Shown in pieces: positions 6,968 to 56,615 of a DNA stretch of 64,000 nt. Every line of letters starts with the position of its first letter. The stretch's first letter is position 1. The notes beneath the pieces were generated by a model that saw only the letters and a list, made by a program, of their open reading frames with translations, ran no database searches and was not told the DNA's origin. The position numbers and the translations under genes were made by a program. Where the stretch lies: contig JALVVL010000007.1 of the NCBI GenBank assembly GCA_027023425.1, positions 89,205 through 153,204 on the forward strand. Reading direction: 5' to 3'. Source of the DNA: Anaerolineales bacterium (GTDB lineage: Bacteria > Chloroflexota > Anaerolineae > Anaerolineales > DRMV01).

Positions 6968-7012
6968 GTGCTCCGGTGTCATGTGCTCCGGTGTCATGTG
7001 TTCCGGTGTCAG
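6968..7012. repeat. 15-nt tandem repeat (GTGCTCCGGTGTCAT x3) in the sufS-sufU spacer
   Basis: Units at 6968-6982, 6983-6997 and 6998-7012 (the third has 2 substitutions). The repeat ends in the AGGAGG Shine-Dalgarno of sufU. It resembles the reverse complement of the 15-mer repeat at 29518-29577. Confidence 0.9.
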
Positions 7013-7609: not shown

Positions 7610-8434
7610 ATGCCTAAAATCTTGTTTGATAATGCATTGCGCAAGAGAAAGAAGGCTAACGCCGCTCTCTTGAGCGTGCTCATTTGGTCGCTTCTTCTGC
7701 TGTATTTTCTCTTGGCCGCCGGTTTGCTTTCGGGCGTGCTTCCTCGCGGCTGGCGCGCTGCCGGTTTGCCGGTGCTCACCCTCATCGCTTGGGGCACGGC
7801 GATTTTGCACGCTGTGGCTTCGCTCGGCGGCTGGGCGGCTGCGCTTTTCTTCGGCATTTCTTTTGCCGTTTCGCTTGGGATGGAGACCCTTGGCGTGCGC
7901 ACCGGTTTGGTTTACGGCGCATACCACTACACACCAAAACTTGGCTTTAGGGTGTTTGGGCTTGTTCCTGTGCTGATACCGCTGGCTTGGTTTGTGATGG
8001 TGTATCCGGGATGGGCGATGGCGCGGCGCATCGTTCCGAAGCGCGGCGCTTTGCGCAAAGCCGCTGTGGGCGCGGTTGGCGCTTTTGCCGTCACCGCTTG
8101 GGATTTGGCGTTAGACCCTTTTATGGTCAAGCGCGGGTATTGGGTTTGGGAGAATGGCGGCGGTTTTTTCGGTGTCCCCCTGCACAACTTTGCTGGTTGG
8201 TGGCTGACGGTGTTTTTGGTTTTGGCTTTGTTTGAGGCGCTTGGGGAATGGAAGCCCTGTCGCCCCAACGCTTTTTCCCTTCAGCCGGTGGTGCTTTATG
8301 CCGTGATGGGCTTTACCACTGTTTGGGCGGCTTTGCAGAATGGATTGGGCGGCCCCGCGTTGGCCGGTGCGTTTGCCATGTTGCCTTGGGCGCTTTGGGG
8401 ATGGGCTTCCGCTCGCGAAGGGGATGAGGCATGA
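7610..8434 (+). CDS. Polytopic membrane protein, carotenoid-biosynthesis-protein-like (DUF422/PF04240-like)
   Basis: About 7 predicted TM segments. The motifs VLIPLAWFVMVYPGW and PLHNFAGWWLTVF resemble the DUF422 family as I recall it. The family call is from memory only. Confidence 0.5.
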   Translation: MPKILFDNALRKRKKANAALLSVLIWSLLLLYFLLAAGLLSGVLPRGWRAAGLPVLTLIAWGTAILHAVASLGGWAAALFFGISFAVSLGMETLGVRTGLVYGAYHYTPKLGFRVFGLVPVLIPLAWFVMVYPGWAMARRIVPKRGALRKAAVGAVGAFAVTAWDLALDPFMVKRGYWVWENGGGFFGVPLHNFAGWWLTVFLVLALFEALGEWKPCRPNAFSLQPVVLYAVMGFTTVWAALQNGLGGPALAGAFAMLPWALWGWASAREGDEA

Positions 8435-26247: not shown

Positions 26248-26679
26248 AGGGCGCAAAGGTTAACGCAGAGACGCAGAGGAAGCAGAGATGCAGAGAGCGC
26301 AAAGGAAAAGATTAGCGATTTAGGATTTGCGGTATTCTCTGAAATCGGCGAAAATCTGTGTCAATCGGTGGATGAAAACCACAGATTACGCAGATTAGCA
26401 CAGATTTTTTCTGCGGAATCTGTGAAATCTGCGGTTTGTTTTCTTCAATCGGTGTAAATCTGTGTCAATCGGTGGATAGTAACGCCAAGGACGCCAAGGA
26501 GTTAACGCCAAGGACGCCAAGAAACCAAAGGACGCCAAGGTTAACGCAGAGGCGCAGAGTAGGGGCGAGGCATCGCCTCGCCCAGAGACGCAGAGAGAAA
26601 ATTTCTGTGTTTTCTGTGGTGCTTCTGTGTCCTCTGTGTTTTTTCTTCAATCGGAGTAAATCTGTGTCAATCGGTGGAT
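26248..26679. repeat. Family A modular mosaic repeat cluster, copy 2 (alaS / ABC-ATPase divergent intergenic region)
   Basis: R words (26260-26310), S-like module (26341-26373), H hairpin (26375-26437), S (26442-26476), K words (26480-26540), R words flanking a GGGCGAGGC-atc-GCCTCGCCC hairpin (26543-26600), C words (26601-26640), S (26645-26679). Confidence 0.85.
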
Positions 26680-26784
26680 GAGAAAAAACAATTGAGGAGC
26701 CGTGAATGCCGAAATTATACCCCAACAGGTATGGAGTATAATAAAGAACAAGCCCCACCAAAGTCCTTTTTCAGGAGAATGCAA

Positions 26785-27892: not shown

Positions 27893-28250
27893 CCCACCGA
27901 TTGAAGAAGAAAACCACAGAGAACACAGAAATTTACAGAGAGCACAGAGAAAAATCTGTGCTAATCTGTGGTTCTCATCCACCGATTGACACAGATTTAC
28001 ACTGATTGAGTAAGAAAACCACAGAAGACACAGAAATTTACAGAGAACACAGAAATTTTTTCTTGGCGCCCTCTGCGCCTCTGCGTTACCGCCCTTCGTG
28101 TCCTTGGCGACCTTGGCGTTCTCATCCACCGATTGGATGGTTGAAACCGCAGATTTCACAGATTCCGCAGAAAGAATCTGTGCTAATCTGTGTAATCTGT
28201 GGTTTTTTCTCTGCGTCTCTGCTTTCTCTGCGTCTCTGCGGTTCCCCTTG
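27893..28250. repeat. Family A modular mosaic repeat cluster, copy 3 (forward orientation)
   Basis: Order partial S, C, half-H, S (27976-28010), C (28013-28055), R', K' (28060-28120), short S (28121-28140), H hairpin (28143-28206, followed by TTTTTT), R' (28207-28240). The ORFs 27623..28402 and 28006.. upstream of 28276 are artefacts. Confidence 0.85.
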
Positions 28251-29517: not shown

Positions 29518-29577
29518 GCACTTGACCCATAAGCACCTGACACAGAAACACTTGACACAGAAACACTTGACACTTAA
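29518..29577. repeat. 15-nt tandem repeat (RCACTTGACACAGAA x4) in the apgM-polX spacer
   Basis: gcacttgacccataa gcacctgacacagaa acacttgacacagaa acacttgacacttaa. About 11/15 identical to the reverse complement of the sufS-sufU 15-mer. Confidence 0.9.
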
Positions 29578-29617: not shown

Positions 29618-31318
29618 ATGAACGCCGAACTTGCGGAACTTTTCCGCCGCATAGCGCGCCTTTTGGAAATCAAAGGCGAAAGCGCTTACAAAATCAACGC
29701 CTACAAGCGCGTCGCGCGTTCCCTGAGCGACTTGGACGCGCCGGTGGAGGAGTATTGGCGTGCAGGCCGACTCAAAGAAATCCCCGGCGTGGGCGACGCA
29801 ATTGCCAAGAAAATTGACGAATACCTCCGCACTGGCACTTTGCAATTTTTGGAGCGTTTGGAGTCGGAAGTGCCGCCTTCGCTGCTGGAATTGACCGCGC
29901 TCCCCGGCATTGGGCCAAAGAAGGCGCGGCTTTTGTGGCAGGAACTCGGTATAACCGACATTGATGCTTTGGCCGAGGCCGCCGCGCACGGCAAATTGCG
30001 AGCCTTGAAGGGCTTTAGCGCTCAGAGCGAACAGCGCATTTTGGAAGGTATCAAGGAATATCGGGCGCGCCCCAAAGGCTTTTTGCTCGGCTTGGCCTAC
30101 CCAACCGCGCTGGCGCTGATGAAACGGCTGCGCGCCCTGCCCGCCGTTTCACAGGTGGAATTGGCGGGTAGCGTGCGCCGCGGGCGCGAAATGGTCAACG
30201 ATATTGACATTGCAATGGCCGCCCCCGAGCCAGATAAGGCGCTTTTGGCCGCGGCGGATGCCCTCCACCTGCCCCACGGCGAACCTCAGCCCGAGGGTGA
30301 TTGCCGCGCTCTGGAAATGCGCTTGCCCAGCGGCATCCCCCTTCACCTGATTGCCTGCCGCCCCGAAATTTTTGGCTTTGGCTGGGTGATGGCGACCGGA
30401 AGCGCGGCGCACACCGATTCGCTTGGAGAATTGGCGGCCTTGCACGGCAAGCGCCTTACCGCCGCGGACTTCCCCGCGAGCACCGAGCAGGAGTTTTACG
30501 GCGCATTTGGGCTGGATTGGATTCCGCCGGAATTGCGCGAAGGCGCGGGTGAACTGGAAGCCGCCGCTCACCACGCCCTCCCCAATCTGCTGACCGAAGC
30601 CGACCTGCGCGCCGACCTCCACACCCACACCGATTGGAGTGATGGGCGCGCAACCATGCGCGAAATGGTCGCTGCCGCCGTCAAGCACGGCGTTCGCGTG
30701 CTTGCCATCACCGACCATTCGGCCTCGTTGGGCGTTGCCAACGGCCTTACCCCCGAACGCTTGCGGCAACAGCGTGAAGAAATCCGCCGTGTGCAAGAAG
30801 AGTTTGGCGATGCCATCCTGCTTTTGCAGGGCGCCGAGGTGGAAATTTTGGCCGATGGCTCGCTTGATTATCCCGATGAAGTGCTGTCCGAGTTGGATGT
30901 GGTGGTTGCGTCGCTCCACACGGGCTTGCGCCAGCCGCGCGAGCGCATCACCGCCCGCTTGCTCAACGCCATTGCCAACCCGCACGTGCACATAATCGGC
31001 CATCCATCGGGGCGGCTGTTGCCCGACCGTCCGCCTGCGGATTTGGACTGGGAGGCGGTGTTGCAAGCCGCCGCGGAGCACGGAGTTGCTCTGGAAATCA
31101 ATGCTCACCCGCGCCGCCTTGACCTGAAGCCCGAATTGGCGCGCCGCGCCATCTCTTTGGGGATACCGCTGGCGCTTAACACCGATGCTCATACCCCTGC
31201 CGACTTCAACAACCGCTTTTACGGCGTGATAGCCGCCCGGCGCGCGTGGGCTACTCCCGAAAATATTATCAACTCTTGGGGGAGAGAAAAACTGCTTTCG
31301 TGGCTTCGGGCGCGCTAA
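29618..31318 (+). CDS. polX: DNA polymerase X family protein with C-terminal PHP phosphoesterase domain
   Basis: N-terminal 8-kDa/HhH region (IA..LE..GE..YK..AY.RA), GIGPK, catalytic-site-like ..GS.RRG.E...D.D.. segment, and PHP motifs (DLH.HT.WSDG, ..ITDHS, ..H..G) at the C-terminus. Confidence 0.9.
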   Translation: MNAELAELFRRIARLLEIKGESAYKINAYKRVARSLSDLDAPVEEYWRAGRLKEIPGVGDAIAKKIDEYLRTGTLQFLERLESEVPPSLLELTALPGIGPKKARLLWQELGITDIDALAEAAAHGKLRALKGFSAQSEQRILEGIKEYRARPKGFLLGLAYPTALALMKRLRALPAVSQVELAGSVRRGREMVNDIDIAMAAPEPDKALLAAADALHLPHGEPQPEGDCRALEMRLPSGIPLHLIACRPEIFGFGWVMATGSAAHTDSLGELAALHGKRLTAADFPASTEQEFYGAFGLDWIPPELREGAGELEAAAHHALPNLLTEADLRADLHTHTDWSDGRATMREMVAAAVKHGVRVLAITDHSASLGVANGLTPERLRQQREEIRRVQEEFGDAILLLQGAEVEILADGSLDYPDEVLSELDVVVASLHTGLRQPRERITARLLNAIANPHVHIIGHPSGRLLPDRPPADLDWEAVLQAAAEHGVALEINAHPRRLDLKPELARRAISLGIPLALNTDAHTPADFNNRFYGVIAARRAWATPENIINSWGREKLLSWLRAR

Positions 31319-32755: not shown

Positions 32756-33093
32756 TAACGCCAAGGTCGCCAGGGGACAAACCACAGATTAGCACAGACT
32801 TTTTCTGTGAAATCCGCGAAATCTGCGGTTTCAACCATCCAATCGGTGCAAATCTGTGTCAATCGGTGGATAAGAACCACAGATTACACAGATTAGCACA
32901 GATTTTTTTCTGTGTTTTCTGTGGTGTTTCTGTGTCCTCTGTGGTTTTCTCCTTCAATCGGTGTAAATCTGTGTCAATCGGTGGATGAAACGAACCACAG
33001 ATTACACAGATTAGCACAGATTCTTTCTGCGGAATCTGTGAAATCTGCGGTTTCAACCATCCAATCGGTGTAAATCTGTGTCAATCGGTGGAT
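32756..33093. repeat. Family A modular mosaic repeat cluster, copy 4 (inverted orientation)
   Basis: K word, short H, S, half-H plus C', S, full H (32993-33053), S (33057-33093). The last S module overlaps the final codons and stop of the FemAB-family gene. Confidence 0.85.
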
Positions 33094-34211
33094 ATGCGGT
33101 TTTGGGCGGCCTTTCTGAGACGGTGGAAGCCCATCCGCCGCCAGAGGGCGAGCACGCGCGGCGCGGCTTGTGCGTAAAGCCAGTAGGCGGCGCGGTTTGC
33201 GGGGAAATCCCATGCGCCGATGGTGCGCACCACCTCCGCGCCAAAGCCGCGCTTGAACCGGTATACGCCCCACATGGGCGCGTCGGGCGAAAATTCATCG
33301 GGCGCGCCCCAAAAGTCGTAAATTTTGCATCCTAAAGCGCGGGCGCGGCGGATGGCTTCCCACTGGAGCAGGTAAGTCGGCATCAGGTTGCGGTGCTCGC
33401 CGGTGGACATGCCGTAAAAGTAGTAAGCCCGTTCTGCAAAGTGGAACATCACCAGCGCGGCGACAGGTTTTCCTTCCACCTCGGCGATGAAGAAATCGGC
33501 TAAGCCCGCGTCGGCGAGCCTTCCCCAAACGCGCAGGTAGTATTCGCGCGGGCGGATGATGAAGCCGTCGCGCGCGGCGGTAACGGCGTACATGCGGTAG
33601 AGCAGGTCGTAATCTGCAGGGCTACCCATCCGCACGCGCACGCCCTTGCGCGCTGCTAAACGGATGTTGTAGCGCGTTTTTTGCTTCATCCGCCGCAGGA
33701 TTTCGTCTTCGTCGGGGGTGAGGTCAAGCCAAAGGGTGTTGCGAAATTGGACTTGGGAGTTGGAAAAGCGCCAGCCGAGCGACTCCAGCGTTTCGCGGAG
33801 GGCTTTGCCGGTGGGGTTGGGGCGCTCATCTTCGGAATTTGGCTCGCCGTAGGCGAGCACCACGTCGGGGTCAATTTTGATTGAAACCGCGCCGCGCCGC
33901 CGCGCAAATTGCTCCAAATCTTCCAAAACGCGCAAGCGCAGCTCGGTGTCCGCCCAATTCAAAAGCGGGGCTTTGGGGGCGTAAAGCAGGCGCAAAAAGC
34001 CCACCTTTCGCTCCAGAACCAGCGCCAGCGCCGCGGTTTTGCCCGCTTGCTCCCAGCGGAGGTAGTGCGGCCTCCAGCCGTATTCGGCCTTTAGCGCCGC
34101 CCAGTGGGTTGTCTGGAGCAGGTGTGCCGCCGGTAGCGAGGCGGCCGCTTCATCCCAGTCTGCCGGTGGGGCGGGGGAGATGCTCAGGGTAATCTCGGAG
34201 CCGCTTGCCAT
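33081..34211 (-). CDS. FemAB-family peptidyltransferase (peptidoglycan interpeptide bridge formation type)
   Basis: HLLQT..WA..K...GW.P......, KTRYNIR.A.K.GV.V and the tandem acyl-CoA-NAT-like halves are typical of FemABX/lipid II aminoacyl transferases. The last codons (I)STD plus TGA lie in a repeat module. Confidence 0.75.
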   Translation of the reverse strand: MASGSEITLSISPAPPADWDEAAASLPAAHLLQTTHWAALKAEYGWRPHYLRWEQAGKTAALALVLERKVGFLRLLYAPKAPLLNWADTELRLRVLEDLEQFARRRGAVSIKIDPDVVLAYGEPNSEDERPNPTGKALRETLESLGWRFSNSQVQFRNTLWLDLTPDEDEILRRMKQKTRYNIRLAARKGVRVRMGSPADYDLLYRMYAVTAARDGFIIRPREYYLRVWGRLADAGLADFFIAEVEGKPVAALVMFHFAERAYYFYGMSTGEHRNLMPTYLLQWEAIRRARALGCKIYDFWGAPDEFSPDAPMWGVYRFKRGFGAEVVRTIGAWDFPANRAAYWLYAQAAPRVLALWRRMGFHRLRKAAQNRISTD

Positions 34212-41960: not shown

Positions 41961-43256
<1,296 letters not shown>

Positions 43257-43278
43257 GCCGACCAGCACGCTGAACCAA

Positions 43279-43313
43279 CAGGGCGAGAAGGTTTTTCTCG
43301 CCCTGTTTCTCAT
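43279..43313 (+). terminator. Rho-independent terminator of eno
   Basis: Perfect 11-bp stem CAGGGCGAGAA / TTCTCGCCCTG, loop GGTTT, followed by TTTCTCATT. Confidence 0.8.
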
Positions 43314-43324
43314 TAACAACATGG

Positions 43325-43384
43325 AAAACCGCAGATTTCGCAGATTACGCAGAAAATCCGTGAAATCTGCGTAATCTGTGGTTT
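43325..43384. repeat. Family A solitary H-type hairpin between eno and the HAD-like gene
   Basis: AAAACCGCAGATTTCGCAGATTACGCAGA...TGAAATCTGCGTAATCTGTGGTTT. An A-run lies 5' and a T-run 3', so terminator-like on both strands. Confidence 0.75.
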
Positions 43385-52602: not shown

Positions 52603-54096
52603 TCAATAGCGCCGGTAGAGGGCGTTAAATTCGCCGAGGCGGTCGGCTAAATTTTGGGGGAGGTCGGCTTTCATGCGCCAAGCCCAGTTCCCGCCGAGAC
52701 GACCGGGGTAATTCATGCGGGCTTCGTTGCCCAACGAAAGCACATCCTGAACGGGTGCAATCGCGAGCACTGCGGTTGAGCGCCAAGCCGCGCGGATCAA
52801 ATCCCACGCGATGTTTTCGCCGCTCACGGCAAGGTAGCGGCGGGCGTAATCGCGCTCTTCGGGCGTAGCGCGCTCGTTCCACCAACCCACAACCGTGTCG
52901 TTGTCGTGGGTGGTGGTGTAAACGGCAAAGTTGGGGTCGGTGTAATTGTGGGGCAAAAAGGGGTTGTCGGAGCCGCTTCCAAATGCAAAAACCAGCACCT
53001 TCATGCCGGGGAAGCCGAACTTGCGGCGCAGGGCTTCCACATCGGGCGTGATTACCCCCAAATCTTCGGCTATCAGCGGCGGGCTTTGGAGCGCATCGTT
53101 CACCGCCGAGAAGAAATCCTCCCCTGGGGCGGGAACCCAGCGGCCGTGCTCGGCAGTTTCTTCCTCTGCGGGCACTTCCCAGTAAGCCGCAAAGCCGCGG
53201 AAATGGTCAAGCCGCACCGCGTCCACCAACTCCAGCAAAAGGCGCAGGCGGCTGAGCCACCACGCGTAGCCGGTGCGGCGGTGCTCCTCCCAGCGGTAGA
53301 GGGGGTTGCCCCAGCGCTGGCCGGTGGGCGAGAAATAATCGGGCGGCACCCCGGCGACAACGCGCGGGTTGCCGTTTTCGTCTAAGTCAAACAGTTCGGG
53401 GTGCGCCCAAACATCGGCGCTGTCGTGGGCTACGAAAATCGGTGCATCGCCGATGAAGCGCACGGCGTGCTCGTGGGCGTGTTCACGCAGGTTGCGCCAT
53501 TGGCGGAAAAAGAGGAACTGGTGGAAGATGTGGCGCTCCACCGCGTCGGCGAGCGATGTGCGTGCTTTTTTCAGCGCCTTTTCGTCGCGGCGGCGGAGCG
53601 GCTCTTCCCATTGTGTCCACGGAGCGCCGCCGTGCGCCTCTTTGAGCGCCATGAACAGCGCAAAATCGTCCAGCCAAGCGCGATGGCGGGCGCGGAAGCC
53701 TTCCATTTCGGCGCGCAGGTCGGCGCGGGCGGCAAAGCGCTCGTAGGCGCGGTCAAGCAAGCCGAGTTTGAAAGGGATGACCGCGCCGTAGTCCACCTTC
53801 CCCGCAGGGAAAGTGGGGAGAGCGGCTAAATCGGCTACGGTGAGCAAGCCTTCGCTCAGCAAATCATCGGGGCTAATGAGGTATGGGTTCCCGGCGAAGG
53901 CGGAGAAGGTTTGGTAGGGCGAATCGCCGTAGCCGGTGGGGCCGAGTGGCAGAACTTGCCACCAGCGCACGCCAACCCTGCCGAGGGTGATGGCGAAACG
54001 GCGCGCCGCGGGGCCGAGGTCGCCTATTCCGTAGGGGCCGGGCAGGCTGGTGGGGTGCAAAAGCAAACCCGATGAGCGCTCAAAGCGGGCGGCCAA
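52603..54096 (-). CDS. malQ: 4-alpha-glucanotransferase (amylomaltase)
   Basis: RSSG.LLHPTSLPG..GIGDLG, DH.RG, GDAPIFVAHDSADVW, IAEDLG.IT, YT.THDN.T..GW: a complete GH77 pattern. Confidence 0.93.
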   Translation of the reverse strand: MAARFERSSGLLLHPTSLPGPYGIGDLGPAARRFAITLGRVGVRWWQVLPLGPTGYGDSPYQTFSAFAGNPYLISPDDLLSEGLLTVADLAALPTFPAGKVDYGAVIPFKLGLLDRAYERFAARADLRAEMEGFRARHRAWLDDFALFMALKEAHGGAPWTQWEEPLRRRDEKALKKARTSLADAVERHIFHQFLFFRQWRNLREHAHEHAVRFIGDAPIFVAHDSADVWAHPELFDLDENGNPRVVAGVPPDYFSPTGQRWGNPLYRWEEHRRTGYAWWLSRLRLLLELVDAVRLDHFRGFAAYWEVPAEEETAEHGRWVPAPGEDFFSAVNDALQSPPLIAEDLGVITPDVEALRRKFGFPGMKVLVFAFGSGSDNPFLPHNYTDPNFAVYTTTHDNDTVVGWWNERATPEERDYARRYLAVSGENIAWDLIRAAWRSTAVLAIAPVQDVLSLGNEARMNYPGRLGGNWAWRMKADLPQNLADRLGEFNALYRRY

Positions 54097-54145
54097 TTTA
54101 TTCCTCCGTTGGAGCGGGATTTTTTGAAAAACAGCAGCCGTTCAT

Positions 54146-54722
54146 CCTTGGCAAGGAGAAACCACAGATTACGCAGAAAAACATCCACCGATTGACACAG
54201 ATTTACACCGATAGGGTTGTTGAAACCGCAGATTTCGCAGATTCCACAGAAAAAATCTGTGCTAATCTGTGCAATCTGTGGTTTTCATCCACCGATTGAC
54301 ACAGATTTACACCGATAGGGTTGTTGAAACCGCAGATTTCGCTGATTCCGCAGAAAAAAATCTGTGCTAATCTGTGTAATCTGTGGTTTTCATCCACCGA
54401 TTGACACAGATTTACACCGATAGGGTTGTTGAAACCGCAGATTTCGCAGATTCCACAGAAAAAATCTGTGCTAATCTGTGTAATCTGTGGTTTTCATCCA
54501 CCGATTGACACAGATTTACACCGATTGAGTGAGAAAACCACAGAGGACACAGAAACACCACAGAAAACACAGAAATTTTCTCTTTGCGTCCTTTGCGCCT
54601 CTGTTCCCTCTGCGCCTCTGCGTTACCTCCTTGGCGTCCTTTGTGCCCTTGGCGACCTTGGCGTTAACCTCTTTGCGTCCTTTGCGCCTCTGTTCCCTCT
54701 GCGCCTCTGCGTTACCCTCGGC
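54146..54722. repeat. Family A mosaic cluster, copy 5, including a 104-105 bp tandem array (54182-54530, 3.3 units)
   Basis: Each unit is an S module plus an H hairpin, starting at 54182, 54286, 54391 and 54495 (partial), with only a few substitutions between units. Followed by C words (54534-54575) and alternating R'/K' words (54580-54722). ORFs 54072..54299, 54426..55190 and 54529..54777 are artefacts. Confidence 0.9.
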
Positions 54723-54734
54723 GCCCCAAAACCA

Positions 54735-56615
54735 TCACTTTTTCCAGCCTATGCCGCGCAGGATGAATTCCACATAAGCCTTGGCGCCGGTTGGGTTTGG
54801 ATGGGCAAAGTCCTCGTAAAACCAATCACGATGCGGCGTGGCGTAAGAATTCCAATCCAGCAGATGGGCTTCTTTCCAGCGCGAACACCCCCTTTCCAAC
54901 TGACGGTTCGCCAGTGGCGCCCAGCGAATTGGACTGCGGACGTTGACAAAATACACCTCGCGCACCCCGTGTTCCAAAAAGAGCGACATCACTTTATCAA
55001 AAGTTGCATCGGTGAAAGAACCGTTTGTGCCGAGGTGCACCACCACGATGGGGGCAAGGTGTTTTTGAGCGGCGAGCCGCGGCACGGCTGTGAGCAAATA
55101 CAAAAAGCGTCTGCCCTGGGCGGCGTCCATGTAAAAAGTTCCCTTTGGCAGAGTTTTTCGCCATGTGGGCAAAGTGCTGAGCATTATTGAATCGCCGAGC
55201 AGGGTGAGCCTAAGCCCCGTCGGAGTGGGAGAAATGGTGGGGGAAGGGGTGGCTGCCGCCGCCAAGGTGGTGGATTTTGGCGAGGGCGTACCGGTCAATT
55301 CCGGCAACCGCGTGGGCGTTGGAGACGGCGTTTGGGTCGGCGTGGACGCAGGCGCGGTGACGGCAAGTGTGCTTTCGGCGGCAAGGGCTTGTTCCAATTT
55401 GGAAGGGGCGGCCTGAGCCGAAATACGATTGAGGCTTGAAACCAGCCAAAATACCCCAACCGCCAAGGCCAAAACCGCCGCGCTTGTGCCCCAGCCGCGC
55501 CCTTTCTGCCAAACCATTTTTCCCCATGCCTTGAAGCCCATGCTCCGGATGGGATGCTCAACCAAACGGTAACTTATTTCGGCCAAAAGGCAGGCGGCCA
55601 GCCATTCGGCTAAAGCGCACAGCCCCAGCGGCCACGAGCATTCAAAGCGGGGGCGAAAAACCGCAATGAACGGCCAATGCCACAGGTAAATGGCGTAACT
55701 ACGCGTGCCTATCCAGCGGGGGATTGGATGCCCCAAAACCTTTGAGAACAAAGTACGAGGCGAAGAAGCAGCCAGCACCGCCGCGGCGGTTGCCGCCGAG
55801 GTCAGGAAAAAGCCGCCGCGGTACAAAAAATCCTGAAATTCATCAAGCCGGTAGTAGAGGAAAAGCAACAACGCCAGCCCAAGCCAGCCCGCCACCTCGG
55901 CAACACGGCGGTAGCGCTCTTTGCCGCCGGGAGGCCACAAAACGGCAAGCGCGCCCCCCAAAAGAAAACCGGCGGCGCGGGTATCAGTGCCGTAGTAAAG
56001 CCGCATGGGGTCGCCCTGCGGGGTAAACAACAGCGCCATCCACACAGCAGAAAGGACGGCCAGCCCGCCCACCGCGGCGGCCAACCTGAAGGAGCCGCGC
56101 TCGTTGGGCTTCACCCGCAAAAGCAACAAGAGCCCCCAAAGCGTAAGCGGCCAAAACAAGTAAAACTGCTCTTCCACCGCCAGCGACCAAAGGTGCTGAA
56201 GCAAAGGCGGCCTGCCGACGCGCTCAAAGTAAGGCACTTTGCGCAAAATGTAGAGGATATTGGTGGTGTAGGTAAAACCGGCGGGAAGGTCGGCGCGCAA
56301 GCGCGGCCAAGCATCCGGCGCCCAAACCCGCGCCAACACCACCGTGCCGAGCAACAAAAACCACAGCGCAGGCCAAAGCCGCCTCGCCCGCCGCAGCCAA
56401 AAGTTGCCCAGCCGCAGGCGACCGCGCTCGGCGTATTCTTTGAGCAAAATTGAGGTGATGAGGTAGCCCGAAAGCACAAAAAAACTCTCTACCCCCAAAA
56501 AGCCGCCCGCCGCCCACAAAAAGCCTATGTGGTAAAGGAAAACGGCGAGCACGGCCACCGCTCGCAAACCGTCTAAACCGGGCATGTAGGTCAGAGAAGG
56601 GCGAAATTTTGACAT
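54735..56615 (-). CDS. Acyltransferase-3 family membrane protein with C-terminal SGNH hydrolase domain (OatA-like O-acetyltransferase)
   Basis: N-terminus GLDGLRA.AV..V...H, about 10 TM helices. Thr/Pro-rich linker, then an SGNH block I (LLGDSIM) and later GTNG. Confidence 0.85.
   Translation of the reverse strand: MSKFRPSLTYMPGLDGLRAVAVLAVFLYHIGFLWAAGGFLGVESFFVLSGYLITSILLKEYAERGRLRLGNFWLRRARRLWPALWFLLLGTVVLARVWAPDAWPRLRADLPAGFTYTTNILYILRKVPYFERVGRPPLLQHLWSLAVEEQFYLFWPLTLWGLLLLLRVKPNERGSFRLAAAVGGLAVLSAVWMALLFTPQGDPMRLYYGTDTRAAGFLLGGALAVLWPPGGKERYRRVAEVAGWLGLALLLFLYYRLDEFQDFLYRGGFFLTSAATAAAVLAASSPRTLFSKVLGHPIPRWIGTRSYAIYLWHWPFIAVFRPRFECSWPLGLCALAEWLAACLLAEISYRLVEHPIRSMGFKAWGKMVWQKGRGWGTSAAVLALAVGVFWLVSSLNRISAQAAPSKLEQALAAESTLAVTAPASTPTQTPSPTPTRLPELTGTPSPKSTTLAAAATPSPTISPTPTGLRLTLLGDSIMLSTLPTWRKTLPKGTFYMDAAQGRRFLYLLTAVPRLAAQKHLAPIVVVHLGTNGSFTDATFDKVMSLFLEHGVREVYFVNVRSPIRWAPLANRQLERGCSRWKEAHLLDWNSYATPHRDWFYEDFAHPNPTGAKAYVEFILRGIGWKK

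Follow-up and report, generated by a model that had tools for sequence, protein, structure and literature searches.

Between an acyltransferase gene and malQ in the genome of a bacterium of the Anaerolineales (Chloroflexi) from a hydrothermal vent, a unit of about 104 nt is repeated head to tail. The locus raises the question of what kind of element this array is, how its copies came to lie side by side, and whether it is an RNA gene in its own right. The analysis covered the whole 64-kb stretch of DNA around the array, which is referred to below as the window, and 49 fetched loci, which are designated by L numbers.

Structure of the array

The head-to-tail array occupies positions 54182-54528 and holds 3.3 copies of a 104/105-nt unit that are 97% alike. 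Each unit is composed of a 31-nt S module (CATCCACCGATTGACACAGATTTACACCGAT), a short linker (AGGGTTGTTG), and H, an imperfect hairpin of 62 nt with U4 after its stem; the 3' end of the unit is GGTTTT. The array sits in a 638-nt spacer that runs from the stop codon of the Acyl_transf_3 gene to the start codon of malQ. The distance from the array is 85 nt to the malQ start and 206 nt to the upstream stop, and both genes are on the minus strand. The features of the region, including a second hairpin module, K, are as follows.

52603..54096, minus strand: malQ (GH77 4-alpha-glucanotransferase; Pfam PF02446, E = 3.9e-178), the downstream neighbour, with its start codon toward the array
54097..54158, minus strand: malQ-proximal leader with a GGAGG ribosome-binding site, conserved in every allele and outside the repeats
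54159..54181, plus strand: half-arm word block AAACCACAGATTACGCAGAAAAA, complementary to the 3' arm of every H (inverted repeats of 89-95%)
54182-54285, plus strand: unit 1, 104 nt (S 54182-54212, linker, H 54223-54284), variant sites GCAG / CCACAG / A6 / TGC
54286-54390, plus strand: unit 2, 105 nt with one extra A (S 54286-54316, H 54327-54389), variant sites GCTG / CCGCAG / A7 / TGT
54391-54494, plus strand: unit 3, 104 nt (S 54391-54421, H 54432-54493), variant sites GCAG / CCACAG / A6 / TGT
54495-54528, plus strand: fourth S module in the full 34-nt form, ending in GATTGA, with K instead of H downstream
54533..54627, plus strand: K module, made of CACAGA words, TTTT, and then CTCTGCG/GCGTCC words, a long hairpin
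54628..54668, plus strand: block of CCTTGGCG-type 9-mers, from the repeat analysis
54669..54716, plus strand: exact second copy (48 nt, 100%) of the 3' half of K (54580-54627), a direct repeat with an 89-nt period that spans 54580-54716
54735..56615, minus strand: Acyl_transf_3 (OatA-like) gene (Pfam PF01757, E = 2.4e-26), the upstream neighbour, with its stop codon toward the array

A sequence-only reading of this DNA had described three 104/105-nt units and a fourth partial one, each composed of S and H and ending in GGTTTT, and had placed them between an oatA-like gene and malQ, both on the minus strand. The first description was borne out by direct reading and by Tandem Repeats Finder (54182-54525, period 104, 3.3 copies, 97% matches, 0% indels, score 658), and the location by the Pfam matches. 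In the alignment, unit 1 differs from unit 3 by one substitution, while two substitutions and the extra A separate unit 2 from unit 3. A 22-nt piece of the unit occurs three times in the window, against 0.00 occurrences expected by chance.

H is predicted to fold stably on both strands. On the plus strand, H alone gives -33.2 kcal/mol (z = -9.4 versus shuffles), and on the minus strand it gives -28.8 kcal/mol (z = -7.6). The whole unit gives -37.3 kcal/mol (z = -6.0), and S alone has no fold of its own. The K hairpin is more strongly asymmetric: G.U pairing between CGCAGAG and CTCTGTG brings the minus strand to -41.4 kcal/mol, compared with -23.5 kcal/mol for the plus strand. H is mildly asymmetric in the opposite way to K; thus, the two hairpin types of one co-oriented cluster favour opposite strands. 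GGUUUUCUC comes after the K hairpin on the minus strand, approximately 100-200 nt past the acyltransferase stop.

Two kinds of element were rejected on structure. A coding repeat is excluded, because 104/105 nt is not divisible by three and the only ORFs across the array are short, with shifting frames. A CRISPR array does not fit, since the sequence between the S copies is itself the repeated H and not unique spacers.

The repeat family in the window

The modules are assembled from family words of 8-10 nt with the core CRCMGA. S consists of three phased 10-mers, and H of three words and three inverted words that form a 28-pair hairpin. K is the second, longer hairpin type, and runs of GGCG and CTCTGCG words also belong to the family. 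S, H, and K are found in six spacers of the window, which are the spacer of the array and those at 144-451, 26343-26680, 27950-28205, 32783-33093, and 43326-43384. The 64 kb holds 13 S and about 10 H modules, all in spacers, with one S overlapping a stop codon. The 8-nt word C[AG]C[AC]GA[AT][AT] has 110 of its 186 window occurrences in the six spacers, which make up 4.3% of the bases. Whole S-linker-H cassettes of approximately 100 nt lie at 26375-26477, 28127-28206, and 32993-33093, and the dispersed cassettes of the window are 88-94% identical to the array unit.

Near-identical head-to-tail amplification was found only at this array in the 64-kb window. The earlier statement that the mosaic is amplified nowhere else in the window holds for such near-identical copies but not for looser repeats. 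These are the H/S alternation on the minus strand at 32783-33093, which reads (H S)x3, a 147-nt-period repeat at 138-408 (1.9 copies, 74%), and the 89-nt duplication at 54580-54716.

The family has a clear order. Module orientation is uniform within all 43 of the 43 clusters, and the module after S is nearly always an H or a K that points the same way. Across 65 copies of S from several species-level MAGs, 30 of 32 positions reach a conservation of at least 90%, a figure that is partly biased by locus fetching.

Other features of the window touch on the same words. The last codons and the TGA stop of a FemAB-family gene (33081-34211, minus strand) come from the S module at 33081-33093 (...ISTD*). 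A 13-pair GC-rich hairpin with a U-rich tail follows the enolase gene (41964-43256) at 43277-43315 (-22.4 kcal/mol), and a solo, somewhat diverged H lies directly after it at 43326-43384. Upstream of a PolX-like gene (29618-31318), positions 29519-29573 hold 3.7 tandem copies of the 15-mer CACTTGACACAGAAA, which has TTGACACAGA in common with the S core. Short-word tandem repeats are also present at 2327-2385 (AACGACCC x7.4) and 6968-7011 (GTGCTCCGGTGTCAT x2.9). The window starts with GTCGTTGCG-type 8-mers at 1-60, and such 8-mers are likewise found in L017 and L033.

Copy number among related assemblies

Orthologous acyltransferase-malQ spacers were recovered through exact-protein look-ups and one metagenome scan. 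The assemblies compared with the window appear to be metagenomes built from short reads, where a repeat of 104 nt can be collapsed, and this limits the unit counts listed here.

Window: three S-H units, then S-K
L039 and L040: two S-H units (1+2), unit 3 absent
L042: two S-H units (2+3), unit 1 absent
L045: one S-H unit, then S-K
L043: zero S-H units, degenerate S and K only
L037: one S-H unit with the family-consensus linker, without S-K

The flanking genes of the window, L039/L040, L042, L045, and L043 are 98.0-99.7% identical at the nucleotide level, and those of L037 are 95.6% and 93.6% identical. The comparison of related assemblies gave 0-3 S-H units between flanks of 98-99.7% identity. 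The sequence-only reading had proposed recent unequal recombination or slippage with a variable copy number, and orthologous spacers that hold 0, 1, 2, or 3 units agree with it. The two-unit alleles are exact subsets of the window array, with units 1+2 in one case and 2+3 in the other. Differences between alleles amount to entire units bounded by S, as expected if the S direct repeats of 31-34 nt had undergone unequal recombination or slippage. The half-arm block at 54159-54181 is present in every allele, even in the one with zero S-H units. Beside the array, the 48-nt duplicate of the 3' half of K, with its GGCG words, represents another recent duplication, which L037 lacks and which takes a different form in L043 and L045.

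The linker shows how the copies arose. All array units have the linker variant CACCGATAGGGTTGTTGAAACC in common, and it occurs at this locus only when the window, the 49 fetched loci, and the JGI metagenome scan are considered. Cassettes elsewhere carry CGATTGGATGGTTGAAACC as the linker. A linker variant private to the locus indicates that the array grew by in-place duplication after the linker had changed, and not by repeated insertion.

Repeated insertion would mean that a miniature mobile element of the MITE or REPIN type had entered beside itself several times. S-H cassettes of approximately 100 nt are indeed dispersed, and related spacers differ by whole cassettes. This origin is nevertheless highly improbable, since the array units share a linker variant found nowhere else, abut without target-site duplications, and have no terminal inverted repeats. 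The approximately 46 window ORFs are all housekeeping genes and include neither a transposase nor a RAYT. A MITE was also rejected on the ends of the unit, CATCCACCG... and ...CTGTGGTTTT, which are not inverted copies of each other, and no duplication lies between units.

The exact number of units is less firm than the array itself. In the ENA assembly of the same sample as the window, which has identical MalQ and acyltransferase proteins, one contig ends inside unit 1 and the other inside unit 3, and contig L044 from a sister sample terminates in the first S. Because the ENA assembly breaks within the array, the array is real and the exact count of three is not secure. The earlier suggestion that long reads might expose the array as an assembly artefact thus fails for the array and keeps its force for the number three. 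The 1+2 and 2+3 alleles both exist in sister samples or MAGs, and the three-unit path could be a chimera of these alleles from co-existing strains. An artefact of copy number only is rather unlikely; in that case, strain variants would have been merged into the three-unit path, and the real allele would contain two units or some other number. The three units bear distinguishing variants, so a unique path exists, and long k-mers or paired reads would follow these variants along a single consistent path. At least two units are also present in three independent assemblies.

Turnover of the family in other genomes

The S core, a 20-mer, was scanned against the GTDB species representatives, and the statements on it refer to the matches listed. 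Most of these matches are contigs of MAGs labelled Anaerolineales, many of which terminate in the repeat. Homologues of malQ and malK, where names are given, are from Chloroflexi, Anaerolineae, or Anaerolineales, and some of their records are named hydrothermal vent metagenome. Spurious ORFs translated from the repeats, which were used as a probe of taxonomic breadth, gave 4 and 21 matches, none of them taxon-named.

S-led tandem arrays are common in Anaerolineales MAG contigs (L017, L033, L034, L014, and L047). L017 has periods of 154/134 nt at 97%, L033 has a 307-nt period, and L034 holds (S K)x3 on each strand. The malK-pgm spacer shows similar changes. It is 390 nt long with five modules in the window, and 135 nt with a single CACAGA-word hairpin in a vent relative whose MalK is 95% identical. 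The hairpin after malK in the vent relative is single in L046:8102-8236 and a tandem duplicate with a period of approximately 180 nt in the JGI contig L047:8102-8401. These differences show that whole-cassette gain, loss, and tandem duplication are the normal dynamics of the family.

Short-read contigs terminate inside S/H/K clusters in L001, L002, L044, L048, L049, and many of L004-L036. The malK gene lies on a 6.1-kb contig bounded by the clusters at 26.7 kb and 32.8 kb. Three contigs of 1.2-1.3 kb from a MAG labelled as a Desulfurococcales archaeon (L017, L030, and L033) consist almost wholly of Anaerolineales-type modules, and they are probably mis-binned.

A plasmid, phage, or virus origin was not indicated. 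No BLAST match was found in PLSDB or INPHARED, and the S core is absent from IMG/VR. A literature search found neither the S nor the H strings, keywords returned nothing relevant on Anaerolineae repeats, and the sample accessions likewise led to nothing. The mosaic repeat family is undescribed in the searchable literature.

Tests of function

The sequence-only reading had also proposed that the array, if transcribed from its own signals, would be an independent multi-hairpin RNA. A more specific form of this proposal is a tandem array of small-RNA genes, in which S would be the promoter, H with UUUU would be the transcript and terminator, and amplification would raise dosage. S lies always 5' of H or K in the same orientation and contains a perfect TTGACA. 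Read along the S-to-H strand, H contains G.U pairs, folds more stably (-33.2 versus -28.8 kcal/mol), and carries U4 at its end. The expected signals were nonetheless not found. A scan for sigma-70-like promoter consensus over 53900-54900 on both strands was empty, and no -10 element lies 16-18 nt past TTGACA at any S-H or S-K junction, where the candidates are GATGGT, GGTTGT, and AGTGAG. For K, which can take the place of H after S, the fold is far more stable on the opposite strand.

Tests for a known or conserved RNA were also negative. The whole window gave no Rfam match at the gathering threshold, and at the E-value level the region 54000-54800 gave only sub-threshold miRNA-hairpin noise (E >= 0.08). 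Rfam searches of five S-core loci from outside the phylum gave nothing usable. The 17 distinct H copies are 95% paired with zero compensatory changes, and covariation is not above shuffles. A small-RNA gene array is therefore very unlikely, and the proposal of an independent RNA with its own signals finds no promoter, Rfam family, or compensatory change in its favour.

Orientation relative to genes gave no further signal. In a simple ORF-based gene call with both flanks called for approximately 25 clusters, about 10 clusters run in the same direction as co-directional genes, 6-7 run opposite, 4 lie between convergent genes, and 4 lie between divergent genes. No rule of orientation or position relative to genes is visible, and the opposite orientation of the array is thus unremarkable. 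The earlier observation that the array runs opposite to both flanking genes is correct, but the 6-7 opposite clusters show that it is not special.

The array may instead be a functional element similar to BIME-2/REP325, co-transcribed with the flanking operon or bound as DNA. Its putative roles would include protection of mRNA 3' ends, a barrier to transcription, and chromosome-organising sites or RNA acting with a nucleoid protein. The architecture is very similar to that of REP325 (PMC4550694). The hairpins are stable on both strands, S is strongly conserved, and the K hairpin and GGUUUUCUC lie on the minus strand at the described distance after the acyltransferase stop. Against this, the clusters show no orientation or position bias relative to genes, and H has no compensatory changes. 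H, which consists of an A/U- and G.U-rich stem and U4 only, was not called in the terminator scan. The enolase gene has its own GC-rich hairpin before the solo H, which suggests that H is not the usual terminator here. Finally, a copy number of 0-3 among near-identical strains implies that the array is not needed. A function of this kind is unlikely.

Comparison with known repeat systems

REP325, a BIME-2 element of E. coli, contains six 77-bp units with two palindromes and identical spacers; it is intergenic and transcribed from the upstream gene (PMC4550694). In E. coli, REP325/naRNA4 acts with HU in chromosome organisation, as sites or as RNA. A REP combines a short, imperfect palindrome and a GT(A/G)G head immediately 5' of it, and in a BIME such elements are regularly spaced and alternate in orientation (PMC2817692). 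Like BIME-2/REP325, the present array consists of intergenic, head-to-tail, near-identical composite units from a genome-wide extragenic family and lies between co-directional genes (PMC4550694; PMC2817692; PMC3333891). Amplification by recombination or slippage is plausible for both, and the high-copy extragenic distribution is that of REP and BIME elements.

Several features separate the family from REPs. H is a 62-nt A/T- and G.U-rich hairpin of 9-nt words, whereas a REP is 20-40 nt long and GC-rich. No GTAG or GTGG abuts H on the plus strand, although S has a minus-strand GTGG 6 nt away (PMC2817692). Unlike BIMEs, the hairpins point one way in 43/43 clusters and do not alternate (PMC2817692). 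The family resembles REPINs, or RAYT-mobilised REP doublets, in being hairpin-forming, extragenic, high-copy, and homogeneous (PMC2817692). It differs from them in having no RAYT in 64 kb, no conserved head tetranucleotide, and a grammar of S then hairpin in place of two inverted REPs. The host belongs to the Chloroflexota, whereas BIME-2 hosts are Proteobacteria, and the approximately 46 window ORFs hold no RAYT. The family is similar to E. coli BIME-2/REP325 in architecture but is not a REP.

Other bacterial repeats vary in tandem number. MIRU-type VNTRs of Mycobacterium are intergenic tandem repeats of 40-100 nt whose copy number varies between close strains; they are described as overlapping the stop and start codons of the adjoining genes, with small in-phase ORFs inside. 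The present array differs from MIRUs in having a period that is not divisible by 3, a distance of 85 nt to the malQ start, and dispersed single copies of its unit. The pneumococcal BOX element (boxA-boxB(n)-boxC) is modular and intergenic, with one module variable in tandem number. Strong predicted folding and a lack of coding capacity are common to both, but BOX has other modules and sequences, and the block amplified here is a cassette of two modules, S+H, that lacks fixed terminal modules. Cyanobacterial STRR and small dispersed repeats are intergenic mosaics and hairpins built from tandem words of 7-10 nt, and NsiR1 shows that tandem units of promoter and hairpin can be real sRNA genes. 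The present family differs from these in its words, and no promoter is detectable in its units.

The S core in other phyla

Among the matches listed, the exact 20-nt S core (CCACCGATTGACACAGATTT) is also present in MAGs labelled Verrucomicrobiae, Acidobacteriota, Prevotellaceae, and Saprospiraceae, and in a soil Anaerolineales MAG. The corresponding loci are L031:5145-5173 and 7872-7900, L009:440-550, L007:3250-3340, L012:2240-2260, and L019:169-188. These MAG loci have a GC content of 0.40-0.67. About one match in the whole collection is expected by chance.

In part, the core is accompanied there by hairpins built from the family words. The Verrucomicrobiae contig of 417 kb carries two S-like copies of 29-34 nt within 8 kb. 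In Acidobacteriota, the S core lies within a hairpin of approximately 125 nt made of CACAGATT words with a perfect 16-nt inverted repeat, and in Prevotellaceae it adjoins a CGCAGAG-word hairpin. S lies at or over an ORF stop codon in several of the cross-phylum loci and in the FemAB-family gene of the window; in L031 and L012, the ORF ends in or just before the S core.

The conservation of S and its presence in other phyla exceed what neutral junk would give and hint at a function or an active spreading mechanism. In a broader proposal, S (ATCCACCGATTGACACAGATTTnCACCGATTG) would be the recognition sequence of a cross-phylum system. Its reader might be a trans-acting recombinase or transposase, or a DNA- or RNA-binding protein that reads 10-bp-phased CACnGATT words; S-plus-hairpin cassettes would be the mobile or functional unit, and tandem arrays a by-product. 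This proposal is distinctly doubtful. S shows only partial matches to a DnaA box (TTATCCACC), a sigma-54 promoter, and an OmpR-type direct repeat. If the cross-phylum S core holds up, it would suggest an undescribed recognition sequence that is widely shared.

Origin and significance of the array

Taken with the allele series and the private linker, the array is quite likely a VNTR that arose by in-place duplication of one S-H cassette of a dispersed, non-coding, intergenic mosaic repeat family. Both features of a VNTR or minisatellite were found, namely a head-to-tail unit in the range of 10-100+ nt and a copy number that differs between close strains in short-read assemblies. One S-H cassette at the locus would have gained the private linker variant, and it would then have expanded from one to two to three copies and also contracted. 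The allele series points to unequal homologous recombination or replication slippage as the likely mechanism, acting between the perfect S repeats of 31-34 nt on either side of every H, and slippage may be helped by the stable hairpins. Two routes are possible for spread between loci, namely gene conversion or the action in trans of an enzyme with S, which is highly conserved, as its recognition sequence. Each unit lengthens the acyltransferase-malQ spacer by 104 nt and adds one more stable hairpin to any transcript or single strand across the spacer, whichever its direction. The array is probably dispensable and looks like ordinary repeat dynamics.

The family has practical consequences for genome recovery. 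S/H/K clusters break short-read assemblies of the lineage, with contigs ending there in at least four assemblies, and these repeats are a main cause of assembly fragmentation in the lineage. The oatA-malQ spacer carries 0-3 units and is therefore a candidate marker for strain typing. The array itself is a strain-variable tandem amplification of one cassette, with no sign of an RNA gene of its own. The family to which it belongs is a BIME-like intergenic mosaic outside the Proteobacteria, with a clear grammar in which S is followed by a co-oriented hairpin, and with fast turnover.
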